Source: Escherichia coli
GTDB taxonomy: Bacteria > Pseudomonadota > Gammaproteobacteria > Enterobacterales > Enterobacteriaceae
Direction: 5' to 3' (one strand)
DNA: 64,000 nucleotides
Assembly: GCA_002099625.1 (NCBI GenBank)
Contig: GCA_002099625.1_4857.1
Each line of letters starts with the position of its first letter. Within the stretch, counting starts at the first letter, position 1. A program made the position numbers and the translations under genes. Positions 3,489-24,197 of the stretch are shown piece after piece. The notes beneath the pieces were generated by a model. It was not told the DNA's origin and made no database searches. It saw only the letters and a program-made list of their open reading frames with translations.

Positions 3489-4802
3489 CTAAGCTGTAAA
3501 TTTTTCATCTTTGAGCCAAAGACTCAGTTGTGATTGGGTGTTATAGCGTCCTGATGCCATCGTTTGACCGTCGACAGCAGACTGGAACACTTCACCCACC
3601 AACGTGCCGTAGCGGGTATAGACCCCATACTCGTTGGCAAAAACGTATTTTACTGGCATACCGGGATATAGGATGCCGTGCGTTGATCGGTTCCAGGTTG
3701 TTTGCACAATCGTACCCAGACCCATCTCCAGTTTAGACCGCTGTGGTTTATCGGTATCGCTAAAGTGCTTATCAGGATCGATTGGTGCGTTAACCACACC
3801 ACCTGGATACGCAGCAGGGTCGGCCTGTGCCACAAATTTATCAGGTGTGGTCATACTGATGTCGCCAGGCGTAAATGAACTACTACGCCCATCCAACACA
3901 CGTACAGACCCTACCCGGTAACCCGTACCCTGGTTAAGCGCGGCCTGGTCACGGTATTCCAAACTACTGGTGTCGCCGCCACAAATCAGATAGATAACAT
4001 TACCCGCGATATCGGTGGTGCGGTCAATGTGAGCAGCCTGTTCACGAGGCAAGTTATAAATGACCAGTTTAGGCTTCGTTGTGTTATTAAACTTCAACGA
4101 GTCCCAAGGTCGATACAGATACCATCGTTGTAGGTATTGGAAGACCCCAATACCTTTGCTGTAAACACCGTAATGGTTCTGCAGATAATCAAACACGCTT
4201 AAGAAGTCTTCGGAGTCTGGTATAACGATGTCCCGATATGCCTGCTGTTCTTCTTCATCGTATTCAATCCCTTTCAACTGCCCCTCTGCAGCCACCCCTT
4301 CCGGCAACGTATCCGCCAATATCGAGCGAGCCACTGTTAACCCATCTGTTTCGTGGTAGATGCCGCCCACTTGACGATTACGCAGGAACCACATCGACTC
4401 ATCCATCAGCTCCAATGTTACCAATGCGATAGATTTCTCATCAGACTGACTCAAGAACATCGTCGGTGATTCCGCGTTGTGGTCGCGGTTATTTATCACG
4501 ATGCCGCGGTAGTTAAAGACCCCTGCGATTTTCTGTCCACGACGCAGTAACAGCTTTACCTTCAAATCCCCTTCTGCGGACGATGTGATCATTCGCATGT
4601 GGCTGTAGGGGATAGCCAAGGTGAGATGTGTCAATAAACAGATATCACGCGTAAAGTGACCGGTGTGAATGATAGACAGCATCTTCAACACCGTCACTGG
4701 GGCACCGTGCACCGTGAGGAATATCCCGTAGTCGATAGCCGGTAACCCCCGAGCATTAGCGATGTGACCGTTCGCCATCTGTTGTAACCGACCAAACGAC
4801 AT
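3489..4802 (-). CDS. hypothetical protein
   Basis: 437-aa ORF; start-stop overlap with the downstream gene. Confidence 0.65.
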   Translation of the reverse strand: MSFGRLQQMANGHIANARGLPAIDYGIFLTVHGAPVTVLKMLSIIHTGHFTRDICLLTHLTLAIPYSHMRMITSSAEGDLKVKLLLRRGQKIAGVFNYRGIVINNRDHNAESPTMFLSQSDEKSIALVTLELMDESMWFLRNRQVGGIYHETDGLTVARSILADTLPEGVAAEGQLKGIEYDEEEQQAYRDIVIPDSEDFLSVFDYLQNHYGVYSKGIGVFQYLQRWYLYRPWDSLKFNNTTKPKLVIYNLPREQAAHIDRTTDIAGNVIYLICGGDTSSLEYRDQAALNQGTGYRVGSVRVLDGRSSSFTPGDISMTTPDKFVAQADPAAYPGGVVNAPIDPDKHFSDTDKPQRSKLEMGLGTIVQTTWNRSTHGILYPGMPVKYVFANEYGVYTRYGTLVGEVFQSAVDGQTMASGRYNTQSQLSLWLKDEKFTA

Positions 4803-5341
4803 TAGCGACCTCCTCGGGCTCTATAAGCGTACTCAATACGTTTCATAATCGTATCATTAAAACGGTGGAGTTTAGACTCCAGGCGGACCTGTCCAAATAA
4901 CGACTGAACACAGTCCGCCATCGTTGCGGTGGGTTTCTTGAAATACCCGTAGCGGTTAGCCACAGGAAACAGTTTCGAAGCCAGCACATTGAACTGACGC
5001 AACCCTTCGATAGGGACTTCCCGGTAAATCAGCGTCGGGTTCTCCAGATAGTTCAGCCAGTCCGCAAGGTGTTCCATAATCCACCCGTACACTTTAATCC
5101 CGTCATGCGGGTCGTGTACATCCAACGCACCACCTGTCGCTAAATACTCGGCAGCTTCTGAGGGGTGCAGATAGATAGGCTTCATGTTCAGTAACAACGC
5201 TTGTCGTTTCTTCGGGTCTTCTGGCAAGAACAATCCGTGTTCCTGACTGGCGTAGGTTGTGATGGTTGCGTATTCCGGTACCCGGAAGAACACCCACGCT
5301 TTAAACAGCATAAATGCTGCACTGCGCTTCTTCTCCGACAT
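4802..5341 (-). CDS. hypothetical protein
   Basis: 179-aa ORF in an overlapping minus-strand gene array. Confidence 0.6.
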   Translation of the reverse strand: MSEKKRSAAFMLFKAWVFFRVPEYATITTYASQEHGLFLPEDPKKRQALLLNMKPIYLHPSEAAEYLATGGALDVHDPHDGIKVYGWIMEHLADWLNYLENPTLIYREVPIEGLRQFNVLASKLFPVANRYGYFKKPTATMADCVQSLFGQVRLESKLHRFNDTIMKRIEYAYRARGGR

Positions 5342-11001: not shown

Positions 11002-11045
11002 GACAAAAAAAGAAGAGGTAAATCCCCCACCGAAGTGGGGGATTC
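11002..11045 (-). terminator. intrinsic terminator after gene 11056-12315
   Basis: hairpin AATCCCCCAC-CGAA-GTGGGGGATT preceded on plus by an A-tract. Confidence 0.6.
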
Positions 11046-11055
11046 GCCAGTCTAA

Positions 11056-12315
11056 TTACTTAGACTTTTCATACGCACCGATACCAGCGCTGATGTAGCC
11101 GTTAACGCCGGCGATCAGGTTTTTCTGGCCAGTTGCAACGCAACGTTCGGTCCAGGAGATGTACTGGTTCGCAACGGTGATTGCACGACGCGCAACACGG
11201 ACGTTGGAAGTCAGTTCAGCATTGTCATCGATCTTCACGCCGTCGATACGTTTCAGCAGCGCCTCAATAGCCCGCTCGTACGATTCTTGAGCCTGGTTAT
11301 TTTTGTGGTACGCTTTCACGTTCTCTTCGACTGCTTTACCCAGCTGGTTGAAGAACGCAACCAGAGAAGACAGCGTCTGAGCAGACGGAGTAGAAACAGA
11401 TTTTTCTACGCTGCCTTCAGCATCGATAACGGTGAAGGAAGCTTCCAGGTCATCCCCGTTCACTTTCACGTCAGCTTTACCGATCTGGTTACCCAGCAGT
11501 TGAACTTCGCCCGCTTTGCCTGCAGTGGCTTTGTTAACCGCTGCTGCGAAGCCGCTGTTCAGTTTGCCGCCTTCAACTGCGCTGACCATGCTGGTTGCAG
11601 CTTTGACCACTGCATCCTGCTCGCCGTAGATGCTGCCGATAGTAGACAGAACACCTTTCAGTGCATTGATGTCGTCACCAACAAACTTACCACCGGTGGT
11701 CAGGTTCTTAATGAACCCACCGCTAATGGTGTCTTTCTTCTGCTTGCCCAGGCCACGCAGAGCCGCGTCATATTTCTTAGCGCGCGCCTGAATGGATTTA
11801 CCCTGGTTGCTGAACTTGAGCCAGCGATCTTTGATTTTACGGCCTTGTTCTTTCAGCCAGTCGAAGATACGCTGCAGGAACGCTTTGATGTCGTCCCACA
11901 GTGATTCGCGAGCAACCTGACGGCGTTTACGTGCGCCGTAAGATTCCTGCGCAACGCTTACGCGGTGATCAAATGCCCAACGTTTACGGATAGATTCCTG
12001 CGCAACGTCCAGCTGCTCAGCAGCTTCGTCAGGCATATCTTCTTCCACTTCCATTGGCTCTTCGCCATCTTCGCCTTCACCGTCAGCGGCGGCTTCAGCA
12101 GCATCAACTGCATCCAGCTGTGCATCAGTTTCGTCACCGTCTTCTGCCAGCACGTCTGCTTCTGCGTCCAGCTGGTCGATCGGTTTGGTGTCATGCTCGA
12201 TGTCAGCCAGAGTACCTTCCACGGACTCAGCCGGCAGCTCGATACCATCTGGAACGACAGTGCCTGCGCCTTCGACAGATTCACGAGCGAGTTTACTTTT
12301 TACAAAGTTTGCCAT
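11056..12315 (-). CDS. acidic protein, tandem paralog 1 (possible virion or inner-body type protein)
   Basis: 419 aa; N-terminus MANFVKSKLARESVE and C-terminus G.NGYI.AGIGAYEKSK shared with the 12393-13670 product; internal AQESIRKRWA shared; long D/E-rich N-terminal region. Confidence 0.7.
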   Translation of the reverse strand: MANFVKSKLARESVEGAGTVVPDGIELPAESVEGTLADIEHDTKPIDQLDAEADVLAEDGDETDAQLDAVDAAEAAADGEGEDGEEPMEVEEDMPDEAAEQLDVAQESIRKRWAFDHRVSVAQESYGARKRRQVARESLWDDIKAFLQRIFDWLKEQGRKIKDRWLKFSNQGKSIQARAKKYDAALRGLGKQKKDTISGGFIKNLTTGGKFVGDDINALKGVLSTIGSIYGEQDAVVKAATSMVSAVEGGKLNSGFAAAVNKATAGKAGEVQLLGNQIGKADVKVNGDDLEASFTVIDAEGSVEKSVSTPSAQTLSSLVAFFNQLGKAVEENVKAYHKNNQAQESYERAIEALLKRIDGVKIDDNAELTSNVRVARRAITVANQYISWTERCVATGQKNLIAGVNGYISAGIGAYEKSK

Positions 12316-12392
12316 CTTTTTCTATCCTCTAGGCGGTACGCCGTGTACCGCCATTAATGATTTGTCAACTGACGTTCAGTACGTAAAGCGGA

Positions 12393-13670
12393 TTAAGCTT
12401 TAGACTTTTCGTACGCGCCAATACCAGCACCGATGTAGCCGTTCAGGCCGCTGATAACAGTGTTACCAACGTGAGCCACAGCACGGTTCAGAGTCTGGTA
12501 GTTACGCACAGCCTGGTCAGCCGCAGTGCGTGCATTACGCAGCGCTTCCCACTCGCCTTCGTCGTTGGATTTTTTCAGAGCGGCAGCAGCTTTGGCAGCA
12601 GCCTCTTCCAGTTTCTCAACGTCAGCGTCGTAGCTGCGGAAGTCTTGCAGGACTTTCTCGAAGCCTTTACCGATAACGTCCAGGGCAGACGCAGCAGATG
12701 CCAGTGCAGAAATAGCCGGAGTAGCGATTTCTTTCGTTTCAGAAACGTCACCCGTCGACAGGAAGGCCACTGCGGTGAATTCCTGACCGCCTGCCAGAGT
12801 TTTGCTGCCGGTCTGTACATAGGCGTTGCCTGGCAGTGCCAGAACTTTCTGACCGCCTTCGCCGTCTTCGAATTGCGGCAGTGCGCGCAGTTTCTTCGCA
12901 GCGGTACCAAACAGGGCAACGTCAACAGCGCCTTTAGCAGCGGTTGCGGTACCGTCTGAAGTTTTGGTGATCGCTACAGCAGAGTCAGCCGCCTGAGAGG
13001 ACAGCTTGTTGATGGCATCTTTCGCTTTACCGCCGGTCAGCTCTTTCGCGATAGCGATAGAGTTGGCCACATCGAATTCACCTTCGATAGACAGTTTGCT
13101 AATAAAGCCACCAGAAATGTTTTCTTTCTTCTGTTTGCCGAGCTTACGCAGCATCTCCTGGTAAGCTTTCGCACGTTTCTGCGCGGACTTACCAACGTTG
13201 ATGTACTTCAGTTTCAGCTCTTTCGCTTTCGCGATAACTGCTTTACACAGTTCAACGAAGCGTTCGAACAGATCTTTCAGGGTTTCTTTCCAGCCTTCCT
13301 GAGCTGCTTTGGTCATGCCACGGCCGCGACGATAAGATTCGCGTGCCAGTTTGGTACGATCGATAGCCCAACGCTTACGGATAGATTCCTGCGCCACTTC
13401 GGTGTGAGCGATGGCTTCTTCAGGCATCTCTTCACCGTTTTCGATTTTTTCGTCAGCAGCGTCGATAGCAGCTTCGGTACGCTCGGTATCAGCAGCCAGG
13501 GTTTCCTGGTCACCATCGAGCTGTTCCAGCTGACCGTCGATAGACGCAACTTCTGCCAGCTGAACGTCGATGTTCTCTTCTGCCGGTTCAACGTTGCTCA
13601 GACCGTCGATTACGTCGCCGGTAGCTTCAACGGACTCGCGGGCGAGTTTACTTTTTACAAAGTTTGCCAT
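12393..13670 (-). CDS. acidic protein, tandem paralog 2
   Basis: 425 aa; same conserved N-terminal 15-mer and C-terminal GIGAYEKSK as the 11056-12315 product. Confidence 0.7.
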   Translation of the reverse strand: MANFVKSKLARESVEATGDVIDGLSNVEPAEENIDVQLAEVASIDGQLEQLDGDQETLAADTERTEAAIDAADEKIENGEEMPEEAIAHTEVAQESIRKRWAIDRTKLARESYRRGRGMTKAAQEGWKETLKDLFERFVELCKAVIAKAKELKLKYINVGKSAQKRAKAYQEMLRKLGKQKKENISGGFISKLSIEGEFDVANSIAIAKELTGGKAKDAINKLSSQAADSAVAITKTSDGTATAAKGAVDVALFGTAAKKLRALPQFEDGEGGQKVLALPGNAYVQTGSKTLAGGQEFTAVAFLSTGDVSETKEIATPAISALASAASALDVIGKGFEKVLQDFRSYDADVEKLEEAAAKAAAALKKSNDEGEWEALRNARTAADQAVRNYQTLNRAVAHVGNTVISGLNGYIGAGIGAYEKSKA

Positions 13671-13726: not shown

Positions 13727-14284
13727 TTAGGGACGTGCGATTTTTAAAAACACTGCTAACGACGAGATCATATCGGATAACCCGTTCGGACGTGTCAACC
13801 AACGTGCCAGCAGTTCGTGGTCTGCATAAGATAATAGACGCCGGTCAGGCGTGTACGTCTGATGCGCAGTTCCCATACGGCGAACTTGCCCACTACGACC
13901 GTAAGCCGCAGCAAGAAGTCGTGAGCCCAGAGAACCAGTTCGCTCTACTTGCTTAGTAGAGTGGATATCGTTCATGTACGATACCAGAAGAACGGACCAC
14001 TGTCCTGTTGACACTGTACGGCGTTTACCGTCAAGTATGAACGATGCAGTTTCGTTATAGAACGTATTAAACGTAAAACCGACCTGCGGATATTCGTCAT
14101 ATAATACTTGTTGGACAGAGTCAGCGCCCATCATGCGGAAATACGGCAACACAACGGCTGCAGCTTCCAGGGTTTCATGTATCAGTTCGTCGTCATGAAC
14201 CAGCACGGGGTTTTGGGTCAGTTTCGCCATGTAGTTTTTAATCAACTTCTCGGCGAGGTTAAAATTCTGGTCATTGTCAAACAT
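13727..14284 (-). CDS. hypothetical protein
   Basis: 185-aa ORF. Confidence 0.6.
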   Translation of the reverse strand: MFDNDQNFNLAEKLIKNYMAKLTQNPVLVHDDELIHETLEAAAVVLPYFRMMGADSVQQVLYDEYPQVGFTFNTFYNETASFILDGKRRTVSTGQWSVLLVSYMNDIHSTKQVERTGSLGSRLLAAAYGRSGQVRRMGTAHQTYTPDRRLLSYADHELLARWLTRPNGLSDMISSLAVFLKIARP

Positions 14285-15250: not shown

Positions 15251-16369
15251 TTACAGTACCGGATTCGCGCCGACGCGATAGGCATCGATGATTTTGTTTA
15301 CATCGCCGCTACCGGACTTCGCCTTGCTAAAGTCTGATTTGTCGAGTTCTTGAGACCCGGTCTGACCACGCGTATAAATGGTTACACGGTTCCAGGTCTG
15401 GTCGACAACCACGTAGTAAACAGTCAGGGTGTCTTTGAACACACGCTGGCGGATATTGTAATCATCGAAGTCACCGCCCAGCTGAGCAGTCAGATCGTCG
15501 ATAGTTTCTTGAGAAACCACCATAACCGAAGACGCGTTGTTGATGGATGGGCTCAGCGTCAGCAGGCCAGACAGCCAGTTGGCGTTTTTCTTTTCCATCA
15601 TCTTACGGTAATAACCGGACTTATCACGGAAGCGGTTCTTACGGTATTCTTCAATGAGGTCATTACACAGCGCGATATCTTTCGCGTAGCTGAGAGAACC
15701 GACCTTCGCACGCAGCACACGTTCCCAGAAGGTTTTGGTTTGATCGCTGAACGCAATGAGCGTTTTCATTTCGTCGGTCGGCAGAGACTTCACATCAAGA
15801 CGCAGACGCATCGGCAGCTCGACTTTATTACCGTCACGTTCGAAGGTAACAGAGAACACTTTACCGTTGGACAGACCTTCTTGATCATGCAGGAGCTTCA
15901 GCGTGTTGTTCGGCAGCACAGAACCTGCGGACGATTCAGTCGCTACTTTGTTATCGGATTTCTGGCGACGGGATTCACCGACCGCAAGCCCGATTTTATC
16001 GTATGACGGCAGCGCGTGACGGGAGGACTCGCCGATTGCGAAAGACGCTAAGCGAGAACCCGAACGTGCAGCCGCGTCGAGGGCATTACGACGGGTGCTA
16101 ACCTGGTCAAGCGTACCAAGGATATCAACCTCAGGAACACCTACCAGAATTGAGATGGCGGTAAGTTGGTTGCCCGCGAGCAGGATTTGGATTTTCTCCA
16201 GAATACCTGGCAGGTAATCTAAGCCCAACAGACTTTGTTCAACCAGCGTGGTGTGCTCGTTGTACAGCACAGAGTTGAATTCTTCCGTCGATTCCGCCCG
16301 CTGGCGAAGCAGCATGGGAAACTTAGAAAGAAAGGAGACGAGCGATGTCTCAAATGTTTTTTCTGCCAT
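15251..16369 (-). CDS. hypothetical protein
   Basis: 372-aa ORF; divergent from the plus-strand gene at 16392 with only ~22 nt between the starts. Confidence 0.65.
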   Translation of the reverse strand: MAEKTFETSLVSFLSKFPMLLRQRAESTEEFNSVLYNEHTTLVEQSLLGLDYLPGILEKIQILLAGNQLTAISILVGVPEVDILGTLDQVSTRRNALDAAARSGSRLASFAIGESSRHALPSYDKIGLAVGESRRQKSDNKVATESSAGSVLPNNTLKLLHDQEGLSNGKVFSVTFERDGNKVELPMRLRLDVKSLPTDEMKTLIAFSDQTKTFWERVLRAKVGSLSYAKDIALCNDLIEEYRKNRFRDKSGYYRKMMEKKNANWLSGLLTLSPSINNASSVMVVSQETIDDLTAQLGGDFDDYNIRQRVFKDTLTVYYVVVDQTWNRVTIYTRGQTGSQELDKSDFSKAKSGSGDVNKIIDAYRVGANPVL

Positions 16370-22844: not shown

Positions 22845-24197
22845 TTAGGAAGAAGTCGCCTGACTAAGCTTCGCAGAAGCCACACGCAGGTCATTAGAAA
22901 GATAGCGTTCCATCGTACGCTGATAATCCACCCCAGCACGTTCACGACGACCACCAGGGGTCAACGTTTTCATGATGAAGCTAAAGACGTTGTCTTTGTC
23001 TTTCACGGTTTTCAGTAATTCGTCGATAGACGCAATGCCCTGCAGAATACGTTTACGATGTTCGTTCGCTTCTTTCGTGGTGCTACCTTTTAAGGTGTTC
23101 AGCTCCTCCACTAAGTTACGACGCATCGTCTCAAAACGTTCCTGCGGCGGATCGTAGATGGTGTTGCGTGGGTCGTTCACAATCAGGCCGAACGCGACTG
23201 AGATAGTCGTGAAGAACAGGCCGACTGGGTTGGACGATGCCACAATCAGCAGCGAAACGTTAAGCATTTCCAGCATCAGATGCACACCGTAGTTCATGTA
23301 CGACGCGTTCCGGCAGAGATAGAATTGAGACGTTTCGATTTTGTACAGGGCTGACGCCAGGTACGGGGCTGCACCAAAGCGAGCTGCGAAGTCATCTGCA
23401 GCACGTTCCCAGGTACGGTTAGCGAACCCTTCCGAACCGGTAACAAACGGACGCTCAAGCAGAATGTCTGTCACCAGATGCATGTAGATGTTCTCTTTAG
23501 ACATCTCTTTGCAGATAGTTTCCGGCTGATTCACTTTGGTGTTCAGCATACGTTCAACGTCTTTTACGACTTTCAAACGCACAGTCGGGTCTTCGGTTTG
23601 CATCATGCGGTTCGCTGCAGCATCCGCAATCAGGTTCGTTACTACCGTACGCATCAAGGTACGGAAATAGTAATAGACGTGGCCGACTTCATGTAGAATA
23701 ATCGCCGCGACTTCTAAATCCGTTAACTCGATACCGGTCAGTAGTTTCGGGGTCAGCCAAAGTGGGGACGGCACCTTGCTGAGTTCGCCTGAAAGCTTCG
23801 CATTTTTATCGTCGAACTCGCCGTTCAGCTCGTTCTCTTTTAAGAACTTACTGTAGACATCCAGGTCGGTGTTGCCCTGCACCATCTTGCGTTGCAGGTC
23901 GGCGATGATTGGGTTGTTCGCGTCGAGCTTCGGTGGCTCCACACCCGCAAACACAACGTCCGCCACACCTAAGTCGGACCCGTTACGAGGCAGGACTGTA
24001 ATACCGTTGTTGTCAAAGACCCAGGCAGCAATACCAGAACTCTGATAACCCGCTGGCGAGAAGTCGCCCGCATCACGGAACTTACGTACCACTTCCGCCA
24101 AAGAGGCGAGTTTCTTTTTATCTTGGAATCCGATGGACTCCGAGGCCACGGCTTTCGCGTCGGCCAACGAGGTTATGTGCTTTTGCCAGTGTCCCAT
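22845..24197 (-). CDS. putative zinc metallopeptidase (HEXXH motif)
   Basis: 450-aa ORF containing AIILHEVGHVYYY; hydrophobic stretch near the C-terminus. Confidence 0.4.
   Translation of the reverse strand: MGHWQKHITSLADAKAVASESIGFQDKKKLASLAEVVRKFRDAGDFSPAGYQSSGIAAWVFDNNGITVLPRNGSDLGVADVVFAGVEPPKLDANNPIIADLQRKMVQGNTDLDVYSKFLKENELNGEFDDKNAKLSGELSKVPSPLWLTPKLLTGIELTDLEVAAIILHEVGHVYYYFRTLMRTVVTNLIADAAANRMMQTEDPTVRLKVVKDVERMLNTKVNQPETICKEMSKENIYMHLVTDILLERPFVTGSEGFANRTWERAADDFAARFGAAPYLASALYKIETSQFYLCRNASYMNYGVHLMLEMLNVSLLIVASSNPVGLFFTTISVAFGLIVNDPRNTIYDPPQERFETMRRNLVEELNTLKGSTTKEANEHRKRILQGIASIDELLKTVKDKDNVFSFIMKTLTPGGRRERAGVDYQRTMERYLSNDLRVASAKLSQATSS

Follow-up and report, generated by a model that had tools for sequence, protein, structure and literature searches.

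Tandem internal head protein genes in an SPN3US-like jumbo phage encode processed paralogues whose termini co-vary within genomes

Two adjacent genes lie on the minus strand of a 64,000-nucleotide (nt) stretch of an Escherichia coli assembly (GCA_002099625.1, contig GCA_002099625.1_4857.1; hereafter the window), 77 nt apart in the six-frame open reading frame (ORF) list. The upstream gene A (12393..13670) encodes a precursor of 425 amino acids (aa; 45.2 kDa, isoelectric point (pI) 5.3), and the downstream gene B (11056..12315) encodes its tandem paralogue, a precursor of 419 aa (45.1 kDa, pI 4.9). The original prediction had described adjacent ~420-aa genes with an identical 15-mer start and a shared GIGAYEKSK end, and the ORF list places them at exactly these coordinates: the first 15 residues are MANFVKSKLARESVE in both proteins, while the C-terminal ends read GIGAYEKSKA (gene A) and GIGAYEKSK (gene B), with one extra Ala in the gene A protein. 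The pairwise alignment suggested at that time gave 34% identity over the full length (BLASTP, E 4e-49), so that 15 identical residues stand far above what average similarity would give. At the DNA level, the 29-nt string ATGGCAAACTTTGTAAAAAGTAAACTCGC is found at both start codons, exactly twice in the window, with 0 occurrences expected from shuffles.

The locus shares 98.4% nt identity with Salmonella phage SPN3US (genus Seoulvirus) and similar jumbo phages (megablast), and has the gene order and neighbours of SPN3US, where both genes carry the RefSeq label 'internal head protein'. The gene A protein is identical to SPN3US gp53 (425/425 residues) and the gene B protein nearly so to gp54 (416/419), the three differences being conservative substitutions in the mature part (I197V, D214N, and A268T relative to SPN3US) with nothing functionally notable. 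Both proteins span profile positions 2-387 of 387 of PF12699, the family of phiKZ-like phage internal head proteins, with 254.1 bits (E 3.3e-75) for gene A and 194.2 bits (E 5.4e-57) for gene B against a cut-off of 27 bits, and both match phrog_2497 'internal head protein' (E 7.5e-150 and 7e-141, respectively). Together with the published A-x-E cleavage of gp53 and gp54, these assignments support the earlier suggestion of a duplicated pair of processed head proteins.

Both the observation and its interpretation are already known in detail for a phage essentially the same as that of the window. Ali et al. 2017 (PMC5694885) defined gp53 and gp54 as 'paralog family A', similar to pfam12699 and with 34% identity, and described their identical N-terminal 15 residues, in which AXE-12 fits the SPN3US protease motif and SXE-15 the phiKZ motif. 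The same authors likened this N-terminus to T4 capsid targeting sequences, and reported >600 copies of each of these high-abundance E proteins per head. In purified virions and heads, the mature fragments of gp53 and gp54 rank in the top three proteins by abundance (PMC5694885, PMC10052503). 'Mottled' protease-deficient capsids contain an inner T=1 shell of gp53 and gp54, which undergoes remodelling during maturation (PMC7552025). Their incorporation depends on gp243, and gp243-mutant particles lose both proteins (PMC5694885, PMC7552025).

The charge layout is the same along each protein, with pI passing from 10 through 4.1-4.3 to 9.2-9.4, and partitions both precursors into three parts. Residues 1-12, MANFVKSKLARE, form a basic dodecapeptide ending in ARE-12 (13635..13670 in gene A and 12280..12315 in gene B, both minus strand, as are all parts below), with the cut before S13; for gene A this assignment is based on conservation, published mass spectrometry, and the phiKZ gp93 alignment, and gene B carries the same peptide, with the first 29 nt as in gene A. 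Next comes an acidic propeptide, which covers residues 13-125 of gene A (13296..13634; 12.4 kDa, pI 4.3, A-x-E|S at E95, E111, and E125) and residues 13-137 of gene B (11905..12279; 13.4 kDa, pI 4.05, A-x-E|S at E107, E124, and E137). The remainder is a mature basic domain, residues 126-425 of gene A (12396..13295; 31.5 kDa, pI 9.2) and 138-419 of gene B (11059..11904; 30.3 kDa, pI 9.4), and these computed masses agree with the published mature masses of 31.5 kDa for gp53 and 30.3 kDa for gp54 (PMC10052503). The D/E-rich middle regions noted originally thus correspond to a real acidic excess, but one confined to residues ~16-100 (25 D/E vs. 5 K/R in gene A, 32 vs. 1 in gene B). Likewise, the label of acidic proteins applies to the precursors, whereas the products of the published maturation cuts are basic.

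Published cleavage data carry over directly to the window proteins. In SPN3US, the prohead protease gp245 cuts after A-x-E, namely at ARE-12, AQE-95, and AQE-125 in gp53 and at AQE-124 and ARE-137 in gp54 (mass spectrometry, 2023; PMC10052503 Table 2), and all five of these mapped sites occur at unchanged positions in the window proteins. The ARE-12 cut of gp53 was found in three replicate virion analyses, and recombinant gp245 cleaves gp53 in vitro (PMC10052503); in protease mutants the propeptides remain intact (PMC7411985). At the sequence level, the propeptides carry the prohead-protease (S/A/G)-x-E sites expected of PF12699 members, cleavage itself being taken from PMC10052503. The mature domains contain further A-x-E motifs (E151 and E210 in gene A; E248, E270, E330, E344, and E351 in gene B), none of which is among the 14 mapped sites (PMC10052503).

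Across 35 homologues, down to 32% identity, residues N3, F4, A10, E12, S13, E95, S96, E111, and S112 are invariant and A93, A109, and A123 nearly invariant, with a family-wide N-terminal pattern M(A)NF-x5-A-[RQ]-E|S. E15 is variable, and several homologues have no Glu at this position (ARESVG..., ARESIADD), which indicates that SVE-15 is dispensable, consistent with its absence from the mass-spectrometry data. As judged from this alignment, the conserved feature is A-x-E|S at residue 12. The ARE and SVE tripeptides, which end at residues 12 and 15 in both proteins, had been proposed as S/A/G-X-E cleavage sites of the phiKZ type: the phiKZ motif was rightly given and ARE-12 is indeed cut in gp53, but the SPN3US motif is A-x-E and cleavage at SVE-15 has gone undetected.

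A similar arrangement is found in phiKZ, where gp93, gp94, gp95, gp97, gp162, and gp163 belong to the same Pfam family and the internal head protein genes occupy the same position as the window pair, downstream of gp89-gp91 homologues. The ORF upstream of gene A (13727..14284, minus strand, 185 aa) matches PF25618 PhiKZ_gp91, a vertex-binding protein (E 2.4e-8), and the phiKZ order of gp89-gp90-gp91 followed by the PF12699 genes gp92-97 is also the order at this locus, so that the gp50-gp54 block is syntenic with phiKZ gp89-gp97; this head-gene block is present in 11 related phages. Like the window pair, the phiKZ proteins have a protease site at E11-13 that closes a short N-terminal peptide and precedes S-[IV]-E; in gp93, gp94, gp95, and gp97 this peptide has 11-13 residues and ends in SLE. 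BLASTP aligned the gene A protein to phiKZ gp93 (E 5e-5, 29% identity) with KLARE|SVE opposite KLSLE|SIE, and gp93 is cleaved at SLE-13 (PMC5694885, PMC11297242). By this alignment and the SLE peptides, a short N-terminal peptide that carries the first cut is a trait of the whole family. A long propeptide with more sites, a helix-rich mature domain, and a high head copy number are shared as well. Residues 14-84 of gp93 were resolved by cryo-electron microscopy (cryo-EM) as a fibre-like element on the inner capsid surface (PMC11297242), and the gene A propeptide region is homologous to this segment lining the capsid interior.

The two systems also differ in several respects. The 29% identity to phiKZ covers the N-terminal half only, phiKZ carries 6-8 paralogues that vary in length against two of equal length in the phage of the window, and copy numbers are several-fold higher in SPN3US than in phiKZ (PMC5694885). 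The phiKZ protease takes S/A/G at P3 and its first site is SLE, whereas SPN3US gp245 takes A-x-E. Finally, phiKZ gp86, a vertex-binding complex protein (PDB 8y6v chain G), shows 11% identity and no sequence-level match.

The internal head proteins of T4 provide the second point of comparison. IPI, IPII, IPIII, and Alt share a capsid targeting sequence (CTS), a 10-20-residue N-terminal peptide on otherwise diverged internal head proteins, as in the window pair. Like the dodecapeptide, the T4 CTS terminates in a prohead-protease site that has Glu at P1, and maturation removes it; the processed T4 proteins then stay with the DNA until they are ejected (PMC7411985). The window pair has this CTS-like combination of a short shared peptide, a prohead-protease site at its end, and just 34% overall identity, but its Pfam and PHROG matches are to phiKZ-type families only, with none to T4 internal proteins. 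Unlike the T4 CTS, the window dodecapeptide precedes a propeptide of >100 residues with extra cuts, and the proteins are much larger. Targeting sufficiency has been shown for the T4 CTS, whereas a targeting role of the dodecapeptide is proposed by analogy.

Other head proteins in the window were surveyed for a wider N-terminal signal of this kind. Only a gp45-like ORF (22845..24197, minus strand, 450 aa) has a short peptide ending in A-x-E|S: it starts MGHWQKHITSLADAKAVASE|SIG, with no similarity to MANFVKSKL. SPN3US gp45 is given as 50.3 kDa, in agreement with the size of this ORF, and its published cleavage site is likewise ASE-20 (PMC10052503). A gp50-like ORF (15251..16369, minus strand, 372 aa) has its sole A-x-E|S at E145. 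For gp50, PMC10052503 Table 2 gives ATE-127, but the propeptide (15.8 kDa) and mature (25.6 kDa) masses stated there correspond to cleavage at residue 145, so that the paper seems either to have misnumbered the site or to count from another start codon.

The tandem pair and the order of its genes are conserved across Seoulvirus, Erskinevirus, Machinavirus, Wellingtonvirus, and Derbicusvirus, and we used the pair from these five genera to compare A-B distances within the same genome and between different genomes, with 20000 permutations. If the copies had evolved independently since an old duplication, A should be at least as distant from the B of its own genome as from that of any other. The bodies of the two proteins conform to this expectation, with no within-genome effect for residues 16-95 (0.74 vs. 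0.75) or residues 126-415 (0.76 vs. 0.76). For residues 1-9, however, the A-B distance is 0.14 within a genome vs. 0.43 between genomes, the latter equal to the orthologue distance, and 0 of 20000 permutations were as extreme; for the last ~10 residues it is 0.27 vs. 0.42 (permutation P 0.0002). The termini thus evolve in concert while the ~400-residue bodies diverge independently.

This co-variation is directly visible in the sequences. Both paralogues start with MANFVKSKL in phages of the SPN3US type, with MANFAQRKI in STsAS, and with MANFAQRKV in Caitlin, while both lack Ala2 in Kwan (MNFIQQ) and both read MNFMQ(K/Q)RAA in Derbicusvirus. Within Seoulvirus, residues 5-9 are VKSKL in both proteins (SPN3US type) or AQRKI in both (STsAS type), and the same five nucleotide differences split the two types in both genes (codons 1-9, at 13644-13670 in gene A and 12289-12315 in gene B of the window). 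The concerted change of the termini supports their being a common, functionally read signal. A single literature search that combined SPN3US with gene conversion, concerted evolution, and capsid targeting sequences listed no paper making this point, and the within-genome co-variation seems to be a new addition to what is published, if a modest extension of it. One proposal, to which we would give even weight for and against, is that both termini constitute a lineage-specific 'address label' read by one co-evolving prohead partner, the candidate readers being the core or scaffold, gp243, the protease, and the inner capsid surface. The match between labels could be kept either by repeated micro-gene-conversion (~27 nt from the ATG) or by parallel selection, two routes between which synonymous sites cannot discriminate.

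An identical start could also arise with no protein-level function of its own, either by recent gene conversion or by a nucleotide constraint on the first ~30 nt linked to translation initiation. Beyond the identity of the first 29 nt, all 8 of 8 same-residue codons among codons 2-9 are identical between the window genes, against a background of 0.56 (P 0.0095). At same-residue sites in this segment, codon identity is 0.82-0.83 in A-B comparisons, within or between genomes, vs. 0.58 over the remainder of the genes and ~0.4 in codons 10-15. Codon choice in this segment (13644-13667 and 12289-12312) is almost fixed (GCA, AAC/T, TTT, CAA, AAA, CGT...), so that a real 5′ codon constraint exists, and suggests selection on the mRNA 5′ end of these very highly expressed genes. 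Since codon identity is just as high (0.82) between A and B of different genomes, it reflects a 5′ codon preference and carries no evidence on conversion; the 29-nt identity is thereby discounted as a sign of gene conversion, for which the amino-acid co-variation described above is the one argument left.

Several observations point instead to selection on the peptide itself. In codons 10-15, 5 of 6 differ synonymously between gene A and gene B, and in nine representative genomes from across the genera Glu12 is encoded by GAG in 8 of the 9 A genes and by GAA in 8 of the 9 B genes. This segment has therefore escaped homogenisation after the duplication, and ARES[VI]E is held at residues 10-15 by protein-level selection. 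In addition, gene A and gene B have unrelated upstream untranslated regions, so that any conversion tract would have to begin exactly at the ATG. Given also the residues at positions 3, 4, 10, 12, and 13 that are invariant across the 35 homologues, the alignment with the proven SLE-13 site of phiKZ gp93, and the ARE-12 cut observed in vivo (PMC10052503), we consider a purely DNA-level origin of the shared N-terminus very unlikely.

Structure prediction is in line with the family assignment. An AlphaFold2 model of the gene A protein, built from 35 homologues, forms an elongated bundle made mostly of long helices, into which a beta segment is inserted at ~residues 277-316 (mean predicted local distance difference test score 82.1, predicted template modelling (TM) score 0.80). 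Searched against BFVD, the model gave 94 matches at E<=1e-3 with TM-scores up to 0.81, the named ones being jumbo-phage head or virion proteins, including virion or internal head proteins of 201phi2-1, PhiPA3, Psa21, Noxifer, RSF1, and RP12. By these two lines of evidence, the helix-rich fold is shared with other jumbo-phage internal head proteins. A phmmer search of the PDB retrieved no solved structure by sequence (best E 0.29, a porin), as the deposited phiKZ gp93 fragment is too diverged. The same helical bundle with a beta insertion could be taken to place the mature domains among relatives of ClyA-type alpha-pore-forming toxins, membrane-active proteins that, once ejected, would remodel the host membrane, for instance into an early infection vesicle or a DNA conduit. 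Foldseek does list MakA, MakB, MakE, SmhA, and VCA0883 among PDB matches, and host membrane and lipid proteins co-purify with phiKZ gp93. However, all of these Foldseek matches are non-significant (E 0.7-4, probability <=0.12, TM-score 0.10-0.25) and the top hydrophobic 19-residue windows reach just 1.56 and 0.85 on the Kyte-Doolittle scale, which makes a toxin relationship very improbable.

Taken together, these results lead us to interpret the two genes, with high confidence, as SPN3US gp53 and gp54 orthologues, i.e., processed PF12699 tandem paralogues, with the dodecapeptide as a putative docking signal and with capsid lining and unmasking as conditional parts of the same scheme. Each ~45-kDa acidic precursor combines a basic 12-residue peptide, an acidic propeptide of ~110-125 residues, and a basic helical domain of ~30 kDa. 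As published for SPN3US, hundreds of copies of each are built into the prohead as a T=1 inner shell, after which gp245 cuts after A-x-E at E12, E95, and E125 (gp53) and at E124 and E137 (gp54). The dodecapeptide, probably with the C-terminal tail, may act as a shared docking or targeting signal read by one common prohead partner, and would be removed by the protease after use, analogous to the T4 CTS. Residues 13-95 of gp53 may stay on the inner capsid surface, as do residues 14-84 of phiKZ gp93, which would fit the unusually many gp53 propeptide spectra (PMC10052503). Loss of the acidic part may then unmask the basic domain, leaving it free to lie against the packaged DNA. In SPN3US, the mature domains stay in the DNA-filled head and are regarded as ejected with the DNA, in line with the injection of phiKZ and Goslar homologues (Goslar preprint for Goslar). 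That the two proteins are purely scaffold or core components, which build the prohead interior, are degraded at A-x-E sites, and leave the head, is highly improbable: an ordered T=1 shell seen only in protease-deficient capsids and gone on maturation, production at the same time as the major capsid protein (both PMC7552025), and several internal cleavage sites per protein would fit such a role, but the mature fragments rank among the most abundant virion and head proteins, their masses are those of complete C-terminal fragments whose own A-x-E motifs are not among the mapped sites, and the homologues are injected.

Several points weigh against parts of the scheme that we favour. Ejection has been demonstrated for the phiKZ and Goslar homologues, whereas for SPN3US gp53 and gp54 it is inferred, and the Goslar preprint describes the biological role of PF12699 proteins as 'a key unsolved mystery'. 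Recent cryo-EM work disputes that an ordered inner body exists, and the capsid-bound gp53 fragment is not seen in SPN3US. The targeting role of the dodecapeptide is itself a proposal from the literature (PMC5694885). Finally, the ARE-12 cut of gp53 was detected in virions and not in purified heads, and is unreported for gp54 (PMC10052503).

Two hairpins flank gene B on the minus strand. An intrinsic-terminator-like hairpin of 11 pairs with a T-run lies 10 nt past the gene B stop (11005..11045; -23.1 kcal/mol, z -4.5), and 0 of 200 shuffles were as stable. The 77-nt spacer between the genes contains a G+C-rich 8-bp hairpin, GGCGGUAC-ACGGC-GUACCGCC, with no T-run (12332..12352; spacer fold -19.8 kcal/mol, z -2.2), which may be a putative RNA-stability or processing element. 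A sigma-70 promoter scan returned 1 site vs. 2.1 expected, a null result that fits a phage equipped with RNA polymerases of its own.

Database searches yielded two further observations on gp53 relatives. The distant Vibrio jumbo phages pVp-JHP1101 (3983-5215) and pVa-21 each have one gp53-like place at ~30% identity (tblastn), with the match at the record end in both, so that a second copy across the junction is possible. With a single such place in two Vibrio phages, the A/B duplication may be specific to the enterobacterial clade. Separately, annotated proteins of the Salmonella phages SPFM5, SPFM6, SPFM8, SPFM9, SPFM10, SPFM12, SPFM14, SPFM15, and SPFM20 (ENA LR5359xx series) contain gp53 in 20-residue blocks in reverse order. 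Since 20 residues equal 60 nt, i.e., one FASTA line, these records look line-order-reversed in this region, and the block-reversed gp53 is a database artefact, not biology.

The co-variation of the termini predicts which residues form the incorporation signal, and further predicts that swaps of termini between phage lineages would break packaging unless the partner were swapped too. PF12699 proteins are present in thousands of copies per jumbo-phage virion, and terminal co-variation offers a cheap and concrete handle on their role. A defined short signal would also serve the loading of foreign proteins into jumbo-phage heads, as with the T4 CTS.

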